A program made the position numbers and the translations under genes. The notes beneath the pieces were generated by a model. That model saw only the letters and a list, made by a program, of their open reading frames with translations. It made no database searches and was not told the origin of the DNA. Source: Gemmatimonadota bacterium (GTDB lineage: Bacteria > Gemmatimonadota > Gemmatimonadetes > JACCXV01 > JAHWKZ01). From it: DNA of 41,741 nt. The stretch is from NCBI GenBank assembly GCA_041577935.1, contig JBFGIA010000003.1, forward strand, positions 1 to 41,741. The letters run 5' to 3'. How positions within the stretch are numbered: position 1 is the stretch's first letter; each line of letters begins with the position of its first letter. Of this stretch, positions 5,582-27,158 are shown piece by piece.

Positions 5582-6918
5582 GCCGCCTCGCGCACTAGTC
5601 GAGCGGCGAAGAAGCCGTCCAGATCCCCGCTCCAGGGCCGGGTCATCATGTAATCACCGTCGCGATGGTGAGCCGGCACAGCCCCGCCTACCGGAACGCT
5701 CCGGAACTCTCGGCGATCAGAGAGAAATGCGGTTATCACTCGATCGTTCTCCTCGGGTTCGAGCGAGCAAGTAGCGTAAACGAGCGTGCCGCCCGGCGCG
5801 ACTCGATCGGCGAGTTGCGCCAAGAGCTCGCGTTGAAACGTCGCGAACGTCGCCACGTCTTCGGGCAAACGGCGCCATCGGGCGTCGACCCGCCGACGCA
5901 ACACACCGGTGCCGGTGCACGGCACATCGGCGATCACCAGCGAAAACTGCGCCGCGGTCGGCACCGAGCGCGCGTCCGCGGCCACCAGCCACGGCGCGGT
6001 CAACCCTAGACGCTCAACATTCTCGCGGACCCGCCGCAACCTCGCGAAATCGCTGTCGATCGCCAAAGCGCGGAGCGCCGGTGCCTTGGCCAACAGCCCG
6101 CACAGTTTCGTCCCGGGTGCGGCGCACGCGTCGAGCACGCGGTCTTCGGGCCCAGCATCGACCATATCCGTGACCCACTGCGAACCCGCGTCCTGGATCC
6201 AAAACCATCCATCCACCCAGCCCGGCAACGCCGGCGGTGGCGTGCCGCGACCGACGACCACCGCGTCCGGCTTGTCGGGGTGCGGTCGGGCCTCGATGCC
6301 GGCATCGATCAACCGCTCGACGACTGTCCCGGTCGTTGCCCTCTGCACGTTTACCGCCAGGTGCAGGTTTGGTGGCCTATTGTTGCTCTCGAGCAGCGCC
6401 TCGGCCGTCTCCGCACCGTACGCTTCGACCCACCGAGCCACCATCCATTTGGGGTGACTGTGCTTGATCGCCAAATAGAAAACTCGGTCGTCCGGGTCCG
6501 GCAACGGCAATTCCTGACGTTGCCGATCGACGTTTCTAAGAACCGCATTGACGAGCCCCGATGCCCACCGCGCTCTACCGTTCGGCAGCGCATCGTTCAC
6601 CAACTCGACGCTCTCGTCGACCGCTGACCAGACTGGGACGCGATCCAGAAACACGATCTGGTAGGCCCCCAACTCCAGGATCGAGACGACGTCCGGCGGG
6701 AGCGTGTCGATCCCGTGCTTTAGCAACGCATCCAGGTGGTAGTCGAGCCGGTCGCGCCAGCGGATCGCGCCGTATGCCAGCTCCATCGTGAACGCCCGCT
6801 GACGATCGTCAAGCCCGGCGGCACGTCGCTCGAAGCTCTCGTCTGCGCGGGTCCCGTTTCGCACATCGCGTAGGATCTCGAGCGCCCGCCGCCGCTCAAC
6901 GCTGGGGCGCGCACCCAT
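5578..6918 (-). CDS. rsmB: 16S rRNA m5C967 methyltransferase RsmB/Sun
   Basis: NusB-like N-terminus, SHPKW, IQD, LDACAAPGTK, DVPCTGTG, YATCS..PEEN. Confidence 0.95.
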   Translation of the reverse strand: MGARPSVERRRALEILRDVRNGTRADESFERRAAGLDDRQRAFTMELAYGAIRWRDRLDYHLDALLKHGIDTLPPDVVSILELGAYQIVFLDRVPVWSAVDESVELVNDALPNGRARWASGLVNAVLRNVDRQRQELPLPDPDDRVFYLAIKHSHPKWMVARWVEAYGAETAEALLESNNRPPNLHLAVNVQRATTGTVVERLIDAGIEARPHPDKPDAVVVGRGTPPPALPGWVDGWFWIQDAGSQWVTDMVDAGPEDRVLDACAAPGTKLCGLLAKAPALRALAIDSDFARLRRVRENVERLGLTAPWLVAADARSVPTAAQFSLVIADVPCTGTGVLRRRVDARWRRLPEDVATFATFQRELLAQLADRVAPGGTLVYATCSLEPEENDRVITAFLSDRREFRSVPVGGAVPAHHRDGDYMMTRPWSGDLDGFFAARLVREAA

Positions 6919-7746
6919 TCAGTCGCCGACCCTGCCCTCCGTCGGACTCGACGCGGTGGCCCACTGACGTCGGGGCATCCGACCGACTTCAAATGCCAAC
7001 CGTCCGGCCTCGACCGCGTGCCGCATCGCGGTGGCCATCAACACCGGATCGTCGGCTTTGGCGATCGCCGTGTTCATGAGGATGCCGTCGACGCCGAGCT
7101 CCATCGCGACCGCCGCGTCCGAAGCCGTCCCGACACCGGCATCGACAATAACCGGCACCGAAACCGCATCCAGAATGAACTGGATGTTGAGCGGATTGGT
7201 CACCCCGAGACCGGAACCGATCGGCGAGGCGAGCGGCATGACCGCCGCCGCGCCCGCCTCTTCGAGGCGTCGCGCGATCACGACGTCATCGTTTGTGTAC
7301 GGCAACACGGTAAACCCCTCTTCGACAAGGGTTCGAGTCGCCGCGACGAGCCCTTCGACGTCGGGATACAACGTCCGCTCGTCTCCGATGACCTCCAGCT
7401 TGATGAAATCGCTTAGCCCCGCGGCACGACCGAGACGAGCGACCCGTATCGCGTCATCCGCTGAGTAGCAGCCGGCGGTGTTCGGGAGGATCAGGACCTT
7501 GTCTGGATCGAGATAGTGGAGCAGGCTCGTTTCGTCCGACGCGTCGAGCTTGACCCGTCGCACCGCAACCGTGATAACATCAGCGCCCGACGCCTCTAGG
7601 CACCGAACCATCGTCTCCGGAGAGTCGTATTTTCCGCTGCCGATGATGAGCCGGGAGCGGAACGTTCGTCCACCGAGTCGCCACCCGGTGGATAGATCTG
7701 CCACCGCATCGGCCGGCATCGATGGGGTCGTGGTCGCCTCGGTCAT
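6919..7746 (-). CDS. thiG: Thiazole synthase ThiG
   Basis: [42 protein letters not shown]. Confidence 0.97.
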
Positions 7747-21041: not shown

Positions 21042-21788
21042 TCAACTGGCGCGGGCCAAGATCTCCTCGTCGATGTCGAAGTTGGCCGCCACGCGCTGGA
21101 TATCGTCGTCATCCTCAAGAGCGTCGAGGAGCTTGAGAAGCCTCTCTGCGTCACCGCCTTCCACGGCGACGGCGCTCTTGGCGATCATCGTCAGCTCGGC
21201 TTCCTCGCTCTCGATCCCAGCCTCGCGCAGAGCTTCCTGCACCGCATGCAGATCACTAAACGAGGTCATCACGCGGAAGTAGTCGCCATCGGAGATGACG
21301 TCTTCTGCGCCGGCCTCGATCGCCGGCAAAAAGACCGACTCTTCGTCGAACCTGGAGGCGTCGATCAAGATCTGGCCCTTCTGATCGAACATCCACGCCA
21401 CCGAACCATCCTTCCCGAGGTTGCCCCCGTATTTGGTCAGTGTGTGACGCACCGAGGCAACGGTCCGTTTCTCGTTATCGGTCAGAGCCTCGATAAAAAT
21501 CGCCACCCCGCCAGGCCCGTAAGCCTCGTAAGTGACGGGCACGTAGTTGACGCCAGGCAGTTCGCCGGTACCACGCTTGATCGCCCGATCGATGTTGTCG
21601 GCGGGCATGTTCTGCGCCTTGGCATTCTCGACCGCAGTGCGCAGACGAGGGTTCATGCTGGTATCACCCCCGCCATCCCGCGCTGCGACGGTGATTTCCT
21701 TGATCAGCCTGGAGAAGATCTTGCCGCGCTTTGCGTCAGCAGCGGCCTTTTTGCGCTTGATCGTGGACCATTTCGAGTGACCGGACAT
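21042..21788 (-). CDS. yebC: YebC/PmpR-family protein
   Basis: MSGHSKWSTIKRKK, NPRLR, YEAYGPGG, TDN.KRT; adjacent to ruvC. Confidence 0.97.
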   Translation of the reverse strand: MSGHSKWSTIKRKKAAADAKRGKIFSRLIKEITVAARDGGGDTSMNPRLRTAVENAKAQNMPADNIDRAIKRGTGELPGVNYVPVTYEAYGPGGVAIFIEALTDNEKRTVASVRHTLTKYGGNLGKDGSVAWMFDQKGQILIDASRFDEESVFLPAIEAGAEDVISDGDYFRVMTSFSDLHAVQEALREAGIESEEAELTMIAKSAVAVEGGDAERLLKLLDALEDDDDIQRVAANFDIDEEILARAS

Positions 21789-21795
21789 GTTCTTG

Positions 21796-21801
21796 AATAT
21801 A
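21796..21801 (-). promoter_or_regulatory. Putative -10 element (TATATT) 7 nt before yebC ATG
   Basis: Minus strand TATATT-caagaac-ATG; no SD. Confidence 0.5.
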
Positions 21802-21824
21802 GGGCGTAGTCACAGGTTCTCGCT

Positions 21825-21939
21825 GGTGGGATCACCCCTCGTGGCCGGTGCTCCACTTCGCGGAGCCTCCTCGAGACCTTTGGTCCCTGCGGGGTCTCCG
21901 CTCGTTCCCACACAAACGGCCACTCAGGGTGACCCCACC
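21825..21939 (-). repeat. Structured repeat element, copy 1 (MITE/REP-like; terminal inverted arms plus two internal hairpins)
   Basis: Arms GGTGGG-A-TCACCC-CTC-GTGGCCG / CGGCCAC-TCA-GGGTGA-C-CCCACC; core is the reverse complement of the core at 22624-22707. Confidence 0.85.
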
Positions 21940-21997
21940 GACGACGGGCCGCGACCCCAACCATTGCGGCGGCGCATCGGGGACGAAAGATTCCGGT

Positions 21998-22582
21998 ATG
22001 CGGCCGGCTCTCCTGGTACTCATCGCGCTCTCTGTAACCACACCGCTCGTCGCGCAAGAGGCAGACTCCCTTGTCGCGCGCCCGGTGGCACCGGTCGTCC
22101 GCAAGAACGTCTGTCCATTTGAATGCTGCGTATACCGAGAGTGGACGGCGATCGGAGAGATACCGGTGTATGCAGCGGAAGGCGACACGACGGTTGTCGC
22201 ATTCACGATGAGTGACGACGAATTGTTCACCGCGATCGAGGGTAACGTGCACCTCGATCGATTGGGGCTCGTCGCGGTACATCGATCAGTAACTGACACC
22301 ATCTACGACACCTACCACTACGAAGCGGGAGATACGCTCGTCGTGCTCGACTACCTGGGCGAAGGGTTTTTCACCGCCTGGCTGAGTGGACGGATGTTGG
22401 AAGTCGAGGCGTTTTGGATGTTCGAAGACCCCGACGAACATGGGACCGTTGAGGGTCCCGCATGGACCGTTGTCGCCGAGCCCGACCCGCATTGGTGGGT
22501 TCGCGTTCAGACCAAAGATGATCGCAACGGCTGGATCTACATGAACGAGGCTCGGGTGACGAACGCCGACGCGTGTGGCTGA
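21998..22582 (+). CDS. Secreted hypothetical protein with CPFECC motif and SH3-like C-terminus
   Basis: Signal peptide MRPALLVLIALSVTTPLVA|Q; CPFECCVYREW; WWVRVQTKDDRNGWI resembles bacterial SH3; ends NADACG. Confidence 0.75.
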   Translation: MRPALLVLIALSVTTPLVAQEADSLVARPVAPVVRKNVCPFECCVYREWTAIGEIPVYAAEGDTTVVAFTMSDDELFTAIEGNVHLDRLGLVAVHRSVTDTIYDTYHYEAGDTLVVLDYLGEGFFTAWLSGRMLEVEAFWMFEDPDEHGTVEGPAWTVVAEPDPHWWVRVQTKDDRNGWIYMNEARVTNADACG

Positions 22583-22605
22583 AGTTCGAAATGGATTATT
22601 GCTGG

Positions 22606-22725
22606 CGGCTGGCACCACCCGAAGCGACCGTTTTGCGCGGGAGTGAGCGGAGACCCCACAGAGACCGAAGGTCTCGAGGAGGCTCCGCGAAACGGAGCGC
22701 CGGTCGCGCATGGTGGTACCAGCCG
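22606..22725 (+). repeat. Structured repeat element, copy 2 (inverted relative to copy 1)
   Basis: Arms CGGCTGG-C-ACCACC-CGAA-GCGACCG / CGGTCGC-GCAT-GGTGGT-A-CCAGCCG; internal hairpins GAGACC-GAA-GGTCTC and GCTCCG-CGAAA-CGGAGC. Confidence 0.85.
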
Positions 22726-22736
22726 ACGATCCTCTA

Positions 22737-23924
22737 ATGCTAAGAACGACGCCCTTCCACACCCGCACCGGTCGGCTGTGCCAAGCGCAGAATTGGCGTC
22801 GCTGGGCCGGCTACGTCGTAGCCAGCTCGTACGAGCTCACCCACGAACGCGAATACCACGCGATCCGCAGCACGGCGGCTCTGATCGACGTGTCTCCGCT
22901 CTACAAGTACTCGGTGCGCGGGCCGGATGCCGGACGGTTGCTAAATCGCGTTATCACACGCGACGTCAACAAGTGTGCAGTCAATCAGGTGATGTACACT
23001 CCGTGGTGCGACGAGGACGGAAAGGTCATCGATGATGGCACGTTGTCGCGGTTGGGTGAAGAGACGTTTCGACTGACCGCCGCCGAGCCGAACTTGCGCT
23101 GGCTCCGCGATAACGCACTTGGGCTAAACGTGACGATCGACGACGTCACCGACTCGATCGCAGCGCTGGCATTACAGGGACCCAATTCACGCGAGATCCT
23201 AAAGCACGCTTCCAACGCCGAGCTGGACGAGCTGCGGTTCTTCGGATTGACGCCAGCGCGAGTGCAAGACGTGCCGGTCACGATCTCACGCACTGGATAC
23301 ACCGGCGATCTGGGCTACGAGGTTTGGGTCGACGCAGAGCGAGCGGTATCGCTTTGGGACACGCTCATGGCCACCGGCGAGTCGTACGGAGTCACCCCCG
23401 CCGGAATGCTGGCGCTCGACGTCGCGAGAATCGAAGCCGGTCTGTTGTTGAATCAAGTCGACTACATCCCCGCCAACAAGGCGCTCCTTGAGACGCGCAA
23501 GTCATCGCCATTCGAGCTCGGCCTGGGGTGGACAGTTGTGCTCGACAAGGATCACTTCGTCGGCCGAGCCGCGCTGCTCCAGGAACAGCGCCGGGGCCCG
23601 GCGTGGCGGTTCAGGGGTCTGGAAATCGAGTGGGAGTCGCTGGAGGATGTTTACGCCGAGTTTGGCCTCCCGCCCGAGCTTCCGACGATCGCCTGGCGAA
23701 CGAGCGTGCCGGTGTACTCGAACACCAAGCAGATCGGCTATGCGACGAGCGGAGCCTGGTCACCGACGCTCAAGAAGTACGTCGCCTTGGCGCACCTCCG
23801 TGCGCAACACGCGGAACCGGGCACCGAGCTGACAATGGAGGTCACCGCCGAGCATCAGCGCAAGTCGGCGCTAGCCAGGGTCGTCACGACGCCGTTCTTC
23901 GACCCCGAACGAAAGCGAGCCTGA
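22737..23924 (+). CDS. GcvT-like folate-binding aminomethyltransferase/demethylase family protein
   Basis: TPFH, EYHAIR..AALIDVSPL, GKVIDDGT, LQGP.SR, SRTGYTGDLGYE, ARIEAG, TPFFDP; start 22737 or 22710. Confidence 0.9.
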   Translation: MLRTTPFHTRTGRLCQAQNWRRWAGYVVASSYELTHEREYHAIRSTAALIDVSPLYKYSVRGPDAGRLLNRVITRDVNKCAVNQVMYTPWCDEDGKVIDDGTLSRLGEETFRLTAAEPNLRWLRDNALGLNVTIDDVTDSIAALALQGPNSREILKHASNAELDELRFFGLTPARVQDVPVTISRTGYTGDLGYEVWVDAERAVSLWDTLMATGESYGVTPAGMLALDVARIEAGLLLNQVDYIPANKALLETRKSSPFELGLGWTVVLDKDHFVGRAALLQEQRRGPAWRFRGLEIEWESLEDVYAEFGLPPELPTIAWRTSVPVYSNTKQIGYATSGAWSPTLKKYVALAHLRAQHAEPGTELTMEVTAEHQRKSALARVVTTPFFDPERKRA

Positions 23925-27124: not shown

Positions 27125-27158
27125 GAGGCTCCGCGAAGTGGAGCGCGGCCACAGGGGG
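27125..27158 (+). repeat. Partial (right-half) copy 3 of the structured repeat
   Basis: GAGGCTCCGCGAAGTGGAGC is identical to the reverse complement of copy 1, followed by GCGGCCACAGGGGG (copy 1: ACCGGCCACGAGGGG). Confidence 0.8.

Follow-up and report, generated by a model that had tools for sequence, protein, structure and literature searches.

A family of long hairpin repeats outside current catalogues, with a core conserved across two phyla, found as an inverted pair beside yebC in a Gemmatimonadota genome

The ERIC elements of enterobacteria, also called IRU, are imperfect palindromes of about 130 nt that occupy short intergenic stretches in or beside transcription units, in either orientation. 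They have no transposase of their own, range from a few to hundreds of copies among related genomes, and include variants with an extra block at a fixed internal site. ERIC, REP and BOX elements have been described as hairpins acting in cis on mRNA, either as stabilisers of 3' ends or intercistronic segments, as processing sites, or as pause sites or terminators.

The analysis of a 41,741-nt stretch of DNA from a Gemmatimonadota bacterium (the window; contig JBFGIA010000003.1 of assembly GCA_041577935.1) centred on an inverted pair of hairpins that brackets a small gene next to yebC. The pair belongs to a real, uncatalogued family of hairpin repeats, of the MITE or ERIC kind, whose core is conserved across two phyla. 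By anatomy and position, the family may be likened to ERIC as a transcribed palindromic repeat: the size of the palindrome, the intergenic setting, the occurrence in either orientation, the range of copy numbers, the variants with an insertion at a fixed site and the lack of an own transposase are all alike. This likeness is drawn from descriptions of ERIC rather than from its sequence, sequence and hosts being unrelated, and the architecture differs in that the centre is the conserved part here while the outer arms differ at every locus of the window lineage. The Bacillales members of the family share terminal inverted repeats, direct repeats and high copy number with MITEs as generally described, for instance the Correia elements and bcr1 from the Bacillus cereus group. 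However, the window copies have neither family-wide terminal repeats nor a visible target duplication, and a search for a parent insertion sequence of the ISL3 type returned none. Indeed, the terminal inverted repeats by which a MITE is recognised are absent throughout the window lineage, the arms being specific to each locus.

The inverted pair in the window

A repeat finder returned a single inverted repeat between positions 21500 and 23000, with arms of 90 nt (21827-21916 and 22632-22721) that are 81% complementary and lie 715 nt apart (Table 1). When the reverse complement of the left copy is aligned with the right copy, the mean column identity is 84%. Both copies fold as a single long irregular hairpin of about 125 nt, in which a core of about 85 nt is almost the same in the two, and the outer arms are poorly conserved though self-pairing, the 5'-side arms being only about 59% alike by a count on the alignment. 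Folded as RNA, the copies reach -84.1 kcal/mol (z -8.9) and -75.5 kcal/mol (z -5.6), with none of 200 shuffled sequences equally stable; the opposite strands give z-scores of -4.7 and -5.3, and folding with DNA parameters gives -4.8, -5.3, -3.4 and -5.3. Neither the folding energies nor the counts of G-U pairs point to a clear strand preference. The structured inverted pair described in a first-pass annotation of this DNA is thus confirmed by repeat search, alignment and folding, including its closing stems (GTGGCCG/CGGCCAC in the left copy, GCGACCG/CGGTCGC in the right).

Two details of that description did not stand. In the second of the two inner hairpins it had drawn (GCTCC...GGAGC), no pair is changed on both sides, a result given equally by 500 of 500 shuffles, and these bases pair instead with the 5'-side GCGGAG (GC 17, CG 11, AU 1). 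The argument for single-stranded DNA that it drew from exceptionally stable c-GNA-g loops fails as well: the tip loop is C-GAA-G in the right copy only and C-AAA-G in the left, and across the family the hairpin tip is free in both length and sequence, so that there is no conserved GNA triloop.

Table 1. Positions of the two hairpins, a truncated copy and the neighbouring genes, in window coordinates.
Feature	Position	Strand	Basis or remark
yebC (TACO1/YebC family)	21042-21788	-	start codon about 30 nt from base of left hairpin
Left copy, whole hairpin	21820-21944	-	repeat search, folding, core pattern, covariance model
Left copy, outer arms	about 21820-21840 and 21925-21944		
Left copy, core pattern	21863-21898		
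Left copy, covariance-model match	21823-21943		102 bits
Enclosed gene, 194 aa	21998-22582	+	no Pfam family; hydrophobic signal-like N-terminus (read from sequence)
Right copy, whole hairpin	22603-22728	+	repeat search, folding, core pattern, covariance model
Right copy, core pattern	22650-22685		
Right copy, covariance-model match	22604-22725		102 bits
Aminomethyltransferase-like gene (GCV_T)	22737-23924	+	ATG 22737 is the start conserved in six relatives, just beyond right hairpin
Truncated tenth copy	27125-27152	+	reduced to the 3' half of the core (GAGGCTCCGCGAAGTGGAGCGCGGCCAC)

As had been noted from the outset, the window copies show neither a transposase nor a target duplication, and no promoter-like or terminator-like signals were found there. 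A terminator scan of positions 21600-22900 detected no T run at the base of either hairpin, such as an intrinsic terminator would have. The longest ORF of the GCV_T gene begins at ATG 22710, within the arm of the right hairpin, upstream of the conserved ATG 22737, and the element can in this way mislead start-codon calls.

Contigs assembled from three of four public DNA runs (X1, X2, X5) span both elements together with their junctions, and joints skipping an element were found in none of the contigs of the four runs. Since, in addition, the left copy recurs at the orthologous position in a related genome (G007), the inverted pair is not an assembly artefact. Contigs of the public runs also end within both element cores (window 21844-21873 and 22592-22657), as expected because unitigs break at inverted repeats; in another relative (G010), too, a contig terminates in a copy.

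A dispersed family with paired arms and a conserved core

BLAST, nhmmer and a covariance model each returned nine full copies in the window genome, on eight contigs of the 2.30-Mb assembly, all of them in short gaps between ORFs. The proposal that the pair represents a dispersed family of folded elements, for which a covariance model was built and scanned, was thus borne out, with further copies in relatives. Similarity between copies stops at the helix P2 (GGCCG/CGGCC), beyond which a stem of 15-30 bp is private to each locus. The unit is therefore best described as an asymmetric core of about 85 nt within a hairpin of 125-150 nt. Inside the outer stem, P2 is joined by P5 (GCGGAG/CUCCGC), a bulged helix (GAG-A-CC-CC / GG-A-GG-CUC) and a free-form tip hairpin; the most conserved letters form a 22-nt core, GAGACCCCRCAG...RAGGAGGCTC.

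In 35 genomes of the order, the core pattern has 74 matches read forwards and none read backwards, so that chance does not account for the window pair. The exact core occurs in 21 of these genomes (19 of 33 without the unpublished genomes G017 and G018), all from a single family. The covariance model matches 113 loci in 23 of the 31 genomes of this family (107 in 21 of 29 without G017 and G018), and 74 of the 113 matches, or 68 of the 107, contain the exact 22-nt core. Across an even sample of the phylum, the model matches 3 of 151 genomes. Copy numbers per genome range from 1 to 17 in the window lineage, and in one genus (g7) 4 of 9 genomes have no copy at all, which implies that none of the loci is indispensable on its own.

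Copies keep their pairing through two-sided changes of base pairs. Among 31 lineage copies, 92.1% of cells are paired compared to 81.9% in shuffles, and the covariation score is 0.306 compared to 0.131, neither value being reached in any of 500 shuffles; controls with slid pairing positions have 35-45% of cells paired. The compensatory change inferred earlier from the two window copies is thus real covariation. The invariance of the core (21 columns of the alignment) is in part circular, because 30 of the 31 sequences were chosen by the exact core pattern. The first-pass annotation had concluded that structure, not sequence, is selected, and this holds for the outer arms but not for the core, which is conserved in sequence even in another phylum. 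Comparisons of orthologous copies depend on their divergence: four close pairs have no fully compensated changes versus 3-6 broken pairs, and several more diverged pairs have 4-10 compensated pairs along with many broken ones, the number of the latter being inflated by alignment error. Orthologous copies in different genera still form long near-perfect stems despite differing arm sequences.

The elements favour the ends of genes. For 32 copies of the window lineage, a gene ends at the 3' side of the element in 25 of the 29 called cases, or about 14 versus 4 once collapsed to independent loci by our own procedure; at the 5' side, 14 genes end at the element versus 10 that start there. Both orientations relative to the adjoining upstream gene occur, in a ratio of roughly 2:1.

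BLAST of flanking sequences places copies from different genomes, and even different genera, at the same loci, so that many copies must be old. Two loci illustrate their fate. The first (C6) is filled in the window genome (G000) and G007, and G010 and G011, in which the site is empty, have short hairpins there. The second (G000:C55:5995-6147) is filled in G000, G008 and G010 (contigs break at the element), retains only the 3' part in G011 and is empty in G006. Copies are lost through internal or microhomology deletion and rarely gained, although the short hairpins seen where the element is absent may have been there beforehand as targets and need not be remnants of deletion. Altogether, the copies of the window lineage appear to be old and largely immobile, with locus-specific arms. 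At the second locus, G005 and G009 (L247, L246) have a gene of about 750 nt together with a remnant of the element's 3' arm, and no such gene is present in G000, G008 or G010, nor in the empty site of G006. In a further genome (G024:C29, L171), a full copy lies beside two tandem occurrences of the element's 3' half, which represent a partial duplication.

Origin of the pair around the small gene

The gene order ruvC, yebC, small gene, GCV_T is kept in all six relatives that have the small gene (G005, G006, G007, G009, G010 and G011). None of the six has the right element, and only G007 has the left one. At the site of the right copy, four of the six share a conserved spacer of about 50 nt that is replaced by the element in the window genome; no short hairpin is present there in relatives, and the comparison of filled and empty sites revealed no target-site duplication, nor any clean duplication. 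The right copy is the only clear case of a recent gain, which took place in the line of the window genome. The site of the left copy, at yebC, has a different history: in G010 it is the filled sequence lacking a segment with ACCCC repeats at its borders, in G011 only a short hairpin is left, equivalent to the base of the outer stem, and G005 and G006 have possible remnants.

An unusual tip, RGACCRRAGGTCNC, is common to both window copies and to the site at 27.1 kb, which points to local copying. The G007 orthologue of the latter site, at which only a truncated copy remains in the window, has an intact copy about 5.2 kb from its yebC copy, with a tip nearly equal to that of the window's right copy. 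Taken together, the evidence points to an origin of the pair around the small gene by local duplication, not as a cassette. It had been suggested that the elements perhaps helped to acquire the enclosed gene, and the pair might be seen as a composite or cassette-like unit by which the gene was captured. The geometry of the pair would fit such a unit, as would a second inverted pair around a small gene in G005, but capture is ruled out at this locus by the presence of the same gene and neighbours in six relatives largely without copies, and its probability can be taken as close to nil. The enclosed gene is native, not cargo. Its homologues are found in six of the seven other genomes of the genus, with 79-91% identity; weaker homologues (35-41%) occur in three genomes of two other genera.

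The second pair in G005 (L268, G005:C258) lies at 6254-6375 (-) and 6999-7117 (+). Its outer arms are almost identical and its tips different. In G006, G007 and G011, one copy only is found, with the same arms as the G005 pair.

Bacillales relatives and the nature of the element

The same core was found at no fewer than 127 loci in named genomes. Among the matches listed, all are of Bacillales type except for one in Pisciglobus and those in two Gemmatimonadota MAGs, which carry a GC-rich form. Four Bacillaceae genomes have 134, 241, 24 and 37 exact cores, and the pattern is present in 3 of 401 genomes in an even sample of their phylum (that of G036). The element thus occurs in a minority of lineages of both phyla, which fits horizontal spread. 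In Gottfriedia it takes the form of a repeat of about 220 nt, with inverted ends common to the copies and the core in the centre. Of the 23 copies with recognisable ends (29 were examined), 12 have a flanking direct repeat of at least 6 nt, compared to a mean of 3.3 in shuffles, none of 1000 of which reached 12; direct repeats flanking the Bacillales MITEs are about 6-10 bp long. Inverted ends and direct repeats are the signature of a MITE, so that in these bacteria the element spreads as DNA by means of a transposase supplied in trans. A parent of the ISL3 type, considered because of a likeness of the ends, was not borne out by a transposase search and a comparison of ends: PF01610, the ISL3 transposase, was detected neither in G036 nor in the window genome, and the 3.7 kb examined at the single ISL3 copy of G035 contain no matching ends.

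Bacillales copies have a conserved U-G pair in the helix CUGCGGG/CCCGCGG. One class of variants in Bacillaceae (L197-L208, genomes G040-G044) has an insertion of about 55 nt (CGAAAATGC..GCATTTTCTTCGTGCG followed by a hairpin) at a fixed site of the 5' arm, and among the five genomes searched its number runs from 1 to 33 each, with dozens in three. A group II intron origin of 'TTCGTGCG' variants was rejected, with no match to an Rfam intron; these are standard elements with the internal insertion of about 55 nt. Core-less forms number 5 against 245 full copies in five Bacillaceae genomes, and have junctions at direct repeats inside the arms, which identifies them as deletions, not empty carriers. 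No orientation bias was detected for 117 Bacillales copies with short flanks, 57 of which have no call on either side; in Gottfriedia, the downstream gene is co-oriented at 22 of 30 loci, all 30 on a single contig. Plasmid records gave 18 matches, none annotated as a feature, two of them in a zwf-gnd-pgi operon, with gnd on one side and a hypothetical gene on the other. A link to phages was dismissed, there being no match in phage records and one in viral contigs.

Rfam 15 has no match at gathering thresholds in the whole window, and none on the elements at E-values up to 10. The only sub-threshold match of the Bacillales form is to RF02577 (tsr24 of Staphylococcus aureus), at 24-25 bits for a threshold of 50, with tsr24 aligning to its middle part. 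According to PMC4752604, tsr24 is transcribed from an intergenic region of S. aureus, as RT-PCR confirmed, and one of three strains lacks it. Its consensus shares the helix GACUCCUG.GGGA ... CCC..GGAAAGCG with the Bacillales form, and both are intergenic and present in only some strains; tsr24 does not have the GAGACCCC/GGAGGCUC core, and does not match the window copies at all. A literature search on tsr24, MITEs, REP and other stem-loops, Gemmatimonadota and Gottfriedia repeats retrieved no description of the element, and six sequence strings used as queries hit only chance primer matches to one 10-mer. PMC2267715, which lists bcr1, also mentions stem-loop families without names from B. halodurans, E. 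faecalis and S. aureus, to which a link is possible.

Two types of mobile folded DNA had been put forward for the window pair. REP and REPIN elements are similarly GC-rich, dispersed intergenic hairpins that sometimes form inverted pairs, but the elements described here are four times longer and have a conserved asymmetric core, whereas the REPIN unit is a palindrome of 20-40 nt. Moreover, the gene for the Y1/RAYT transposase (PF01797) is absent from all 35 genomes of the order, G017 and G018 included, in a search whose control was positive in 6 of 14 known genomes, which does not support the REPIN reading. The attC sites of integrons are likewise imperfect palindromes, in part of whose stem the structure is better conserved than the sequence; however, their conserved boxes lie at the base and their centre is variable, which is the reverse of the situation here. 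The attC reading is not supported either, as single copies and inverted pairs are dispersed over the genome with no direct-orientation cassette arrays, and the bases of their stems differ at each locus. Reverse transcriptase was detected in 8 of the same 35 genomes, with no relation to the copy number of the element, and TnpB above cut-off in one; the window genome has neither. RAYT, reverse transcriptase and TnpB as partners were thus discarded, none of them being associated with the element.

The nature of the element may be approached from its anatomy and position. Our best guess, a tentative one held at somewhat less than even odds, is that a transcribed hairpin acts in cis on neighbouring mRNAs. 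Each element would represent a non-coding hairpin module derived from a mobile element, which spreads as DNA in Bacillales through a transposase supplied in trans and would persist in the window lineage as old, essentially immobile descendants. These would be co-transcribed with their neighbours, probably as a hairpin within the mRNA, where the long stem could serve as a stabiliser of 3' ends or intercistronic segments, a processing site, or a pause site or terminator, with the conserved bulged core as a putative binding site for a factor. The detection as a transcript of tsr24, to which the Bacillales form aligns below threshold, speaks for transcription in a relative. Against this account stands the missing T run beyond the hairpins, and what is hard to explain is why the conserved core should be asymmetric if the RNA works in either orientation. 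It is tempting to speculate instead that the core is an uncatalogued functional module housed in different carriers, namely MITEs driven by a transposase in Bacillales and long hairpins particular to each locus in the window lineage, and recognised by a factor common to both; such a module may enter existing hairpin loops at gene ends without a transposase of its own. We consider this unlikely. It is a rather doubtful, though somewhat more credible, view that the elements are selfish or neutral relics, dead MITE derivatives with no host function whose palindromes were inherited as such and whose intact copies are preferentially detected. Bursts of 134-241 copies in Bacillaceae, the few genomes that carry the element (3 of 151 and 3 of 401), its absence from 8 of the family's 31 genomes, the frequency of loss and truncation, the ascertainment by exact pattern, and the broken rather than compensated pairs of close orthologues (3-6 versus 0) are all in keeping with neutrality. 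It accounts less well for the long near-perfect stems that orthologous copies still fold across genera despite the divergence of their arms, for the 4-10 compensated pairs in more diverged orthologues, and for a level of pairing and covariation that no shuffle out of 500 attained.

The elements might also be genes for a multi-copy structured non-coding RNA, such as a trans-acting small RNA or a protein scaffold, with the core as functional site and a variable outer stem. The conservation of the core sequence across two phyla, the covariation backing the fold, the optional domain of about 55 nt at one fixed internal site and the conserved U-G pair of Bacillales copies, as well as the detection of tsr24 as a transcript, are features of such RNAs. 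We nevertheless regard this as distinctly improbable, as promoter-like and terminator-like signals are lacking at the window copies, copies fill intergenic gaps in both orientations, folding is without strand preference, and the inverted ends and flanking repeats in Gottfriedia resemble transposed DNA. Mobility as single-stranded DNA in the manner of REPINs or attC sites, or the entry of a module into the loops of hairpins already present, for example terminators, under the action of a structure-specific enzyme, is more improbable still. Such insertion into loops would explain why empty sites in relatives retain a short hairpin matching the base of the outer stem, why loop letters are found inverted on both sides of the insert (ATCAC...GTGAT at yebC, GACAC...GTGTC at C6), why every copy of the window genome sits in a locus-specific long stem, and why copies adjoin the 3' ends of genes. 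Against it stand the enzyme searches in the 35 genomes, the site of the right copy, which has no such hairpin in relatives, the rarity of core-less forms in Bacillaceae, which look like deletions, and the lack of direct-orientation arrays.

If a role of the transcribed hairpin in cis is indeed confirmed, a large structured intergenic repeat family that reaches hundreds of copies in Bacillaceae common in soil and marine habitats would so far lie outside the RNA-family libraries. The elements also break assemblies, with public contigs stopping within them. The same 22 letters in two distant phyla, set in arms that keep only their pairing, represent a natural experiment on the persistence of hairpins, which over long times may be maintained by selection on RNA, by selection on DNA, or by repair within palindromes.
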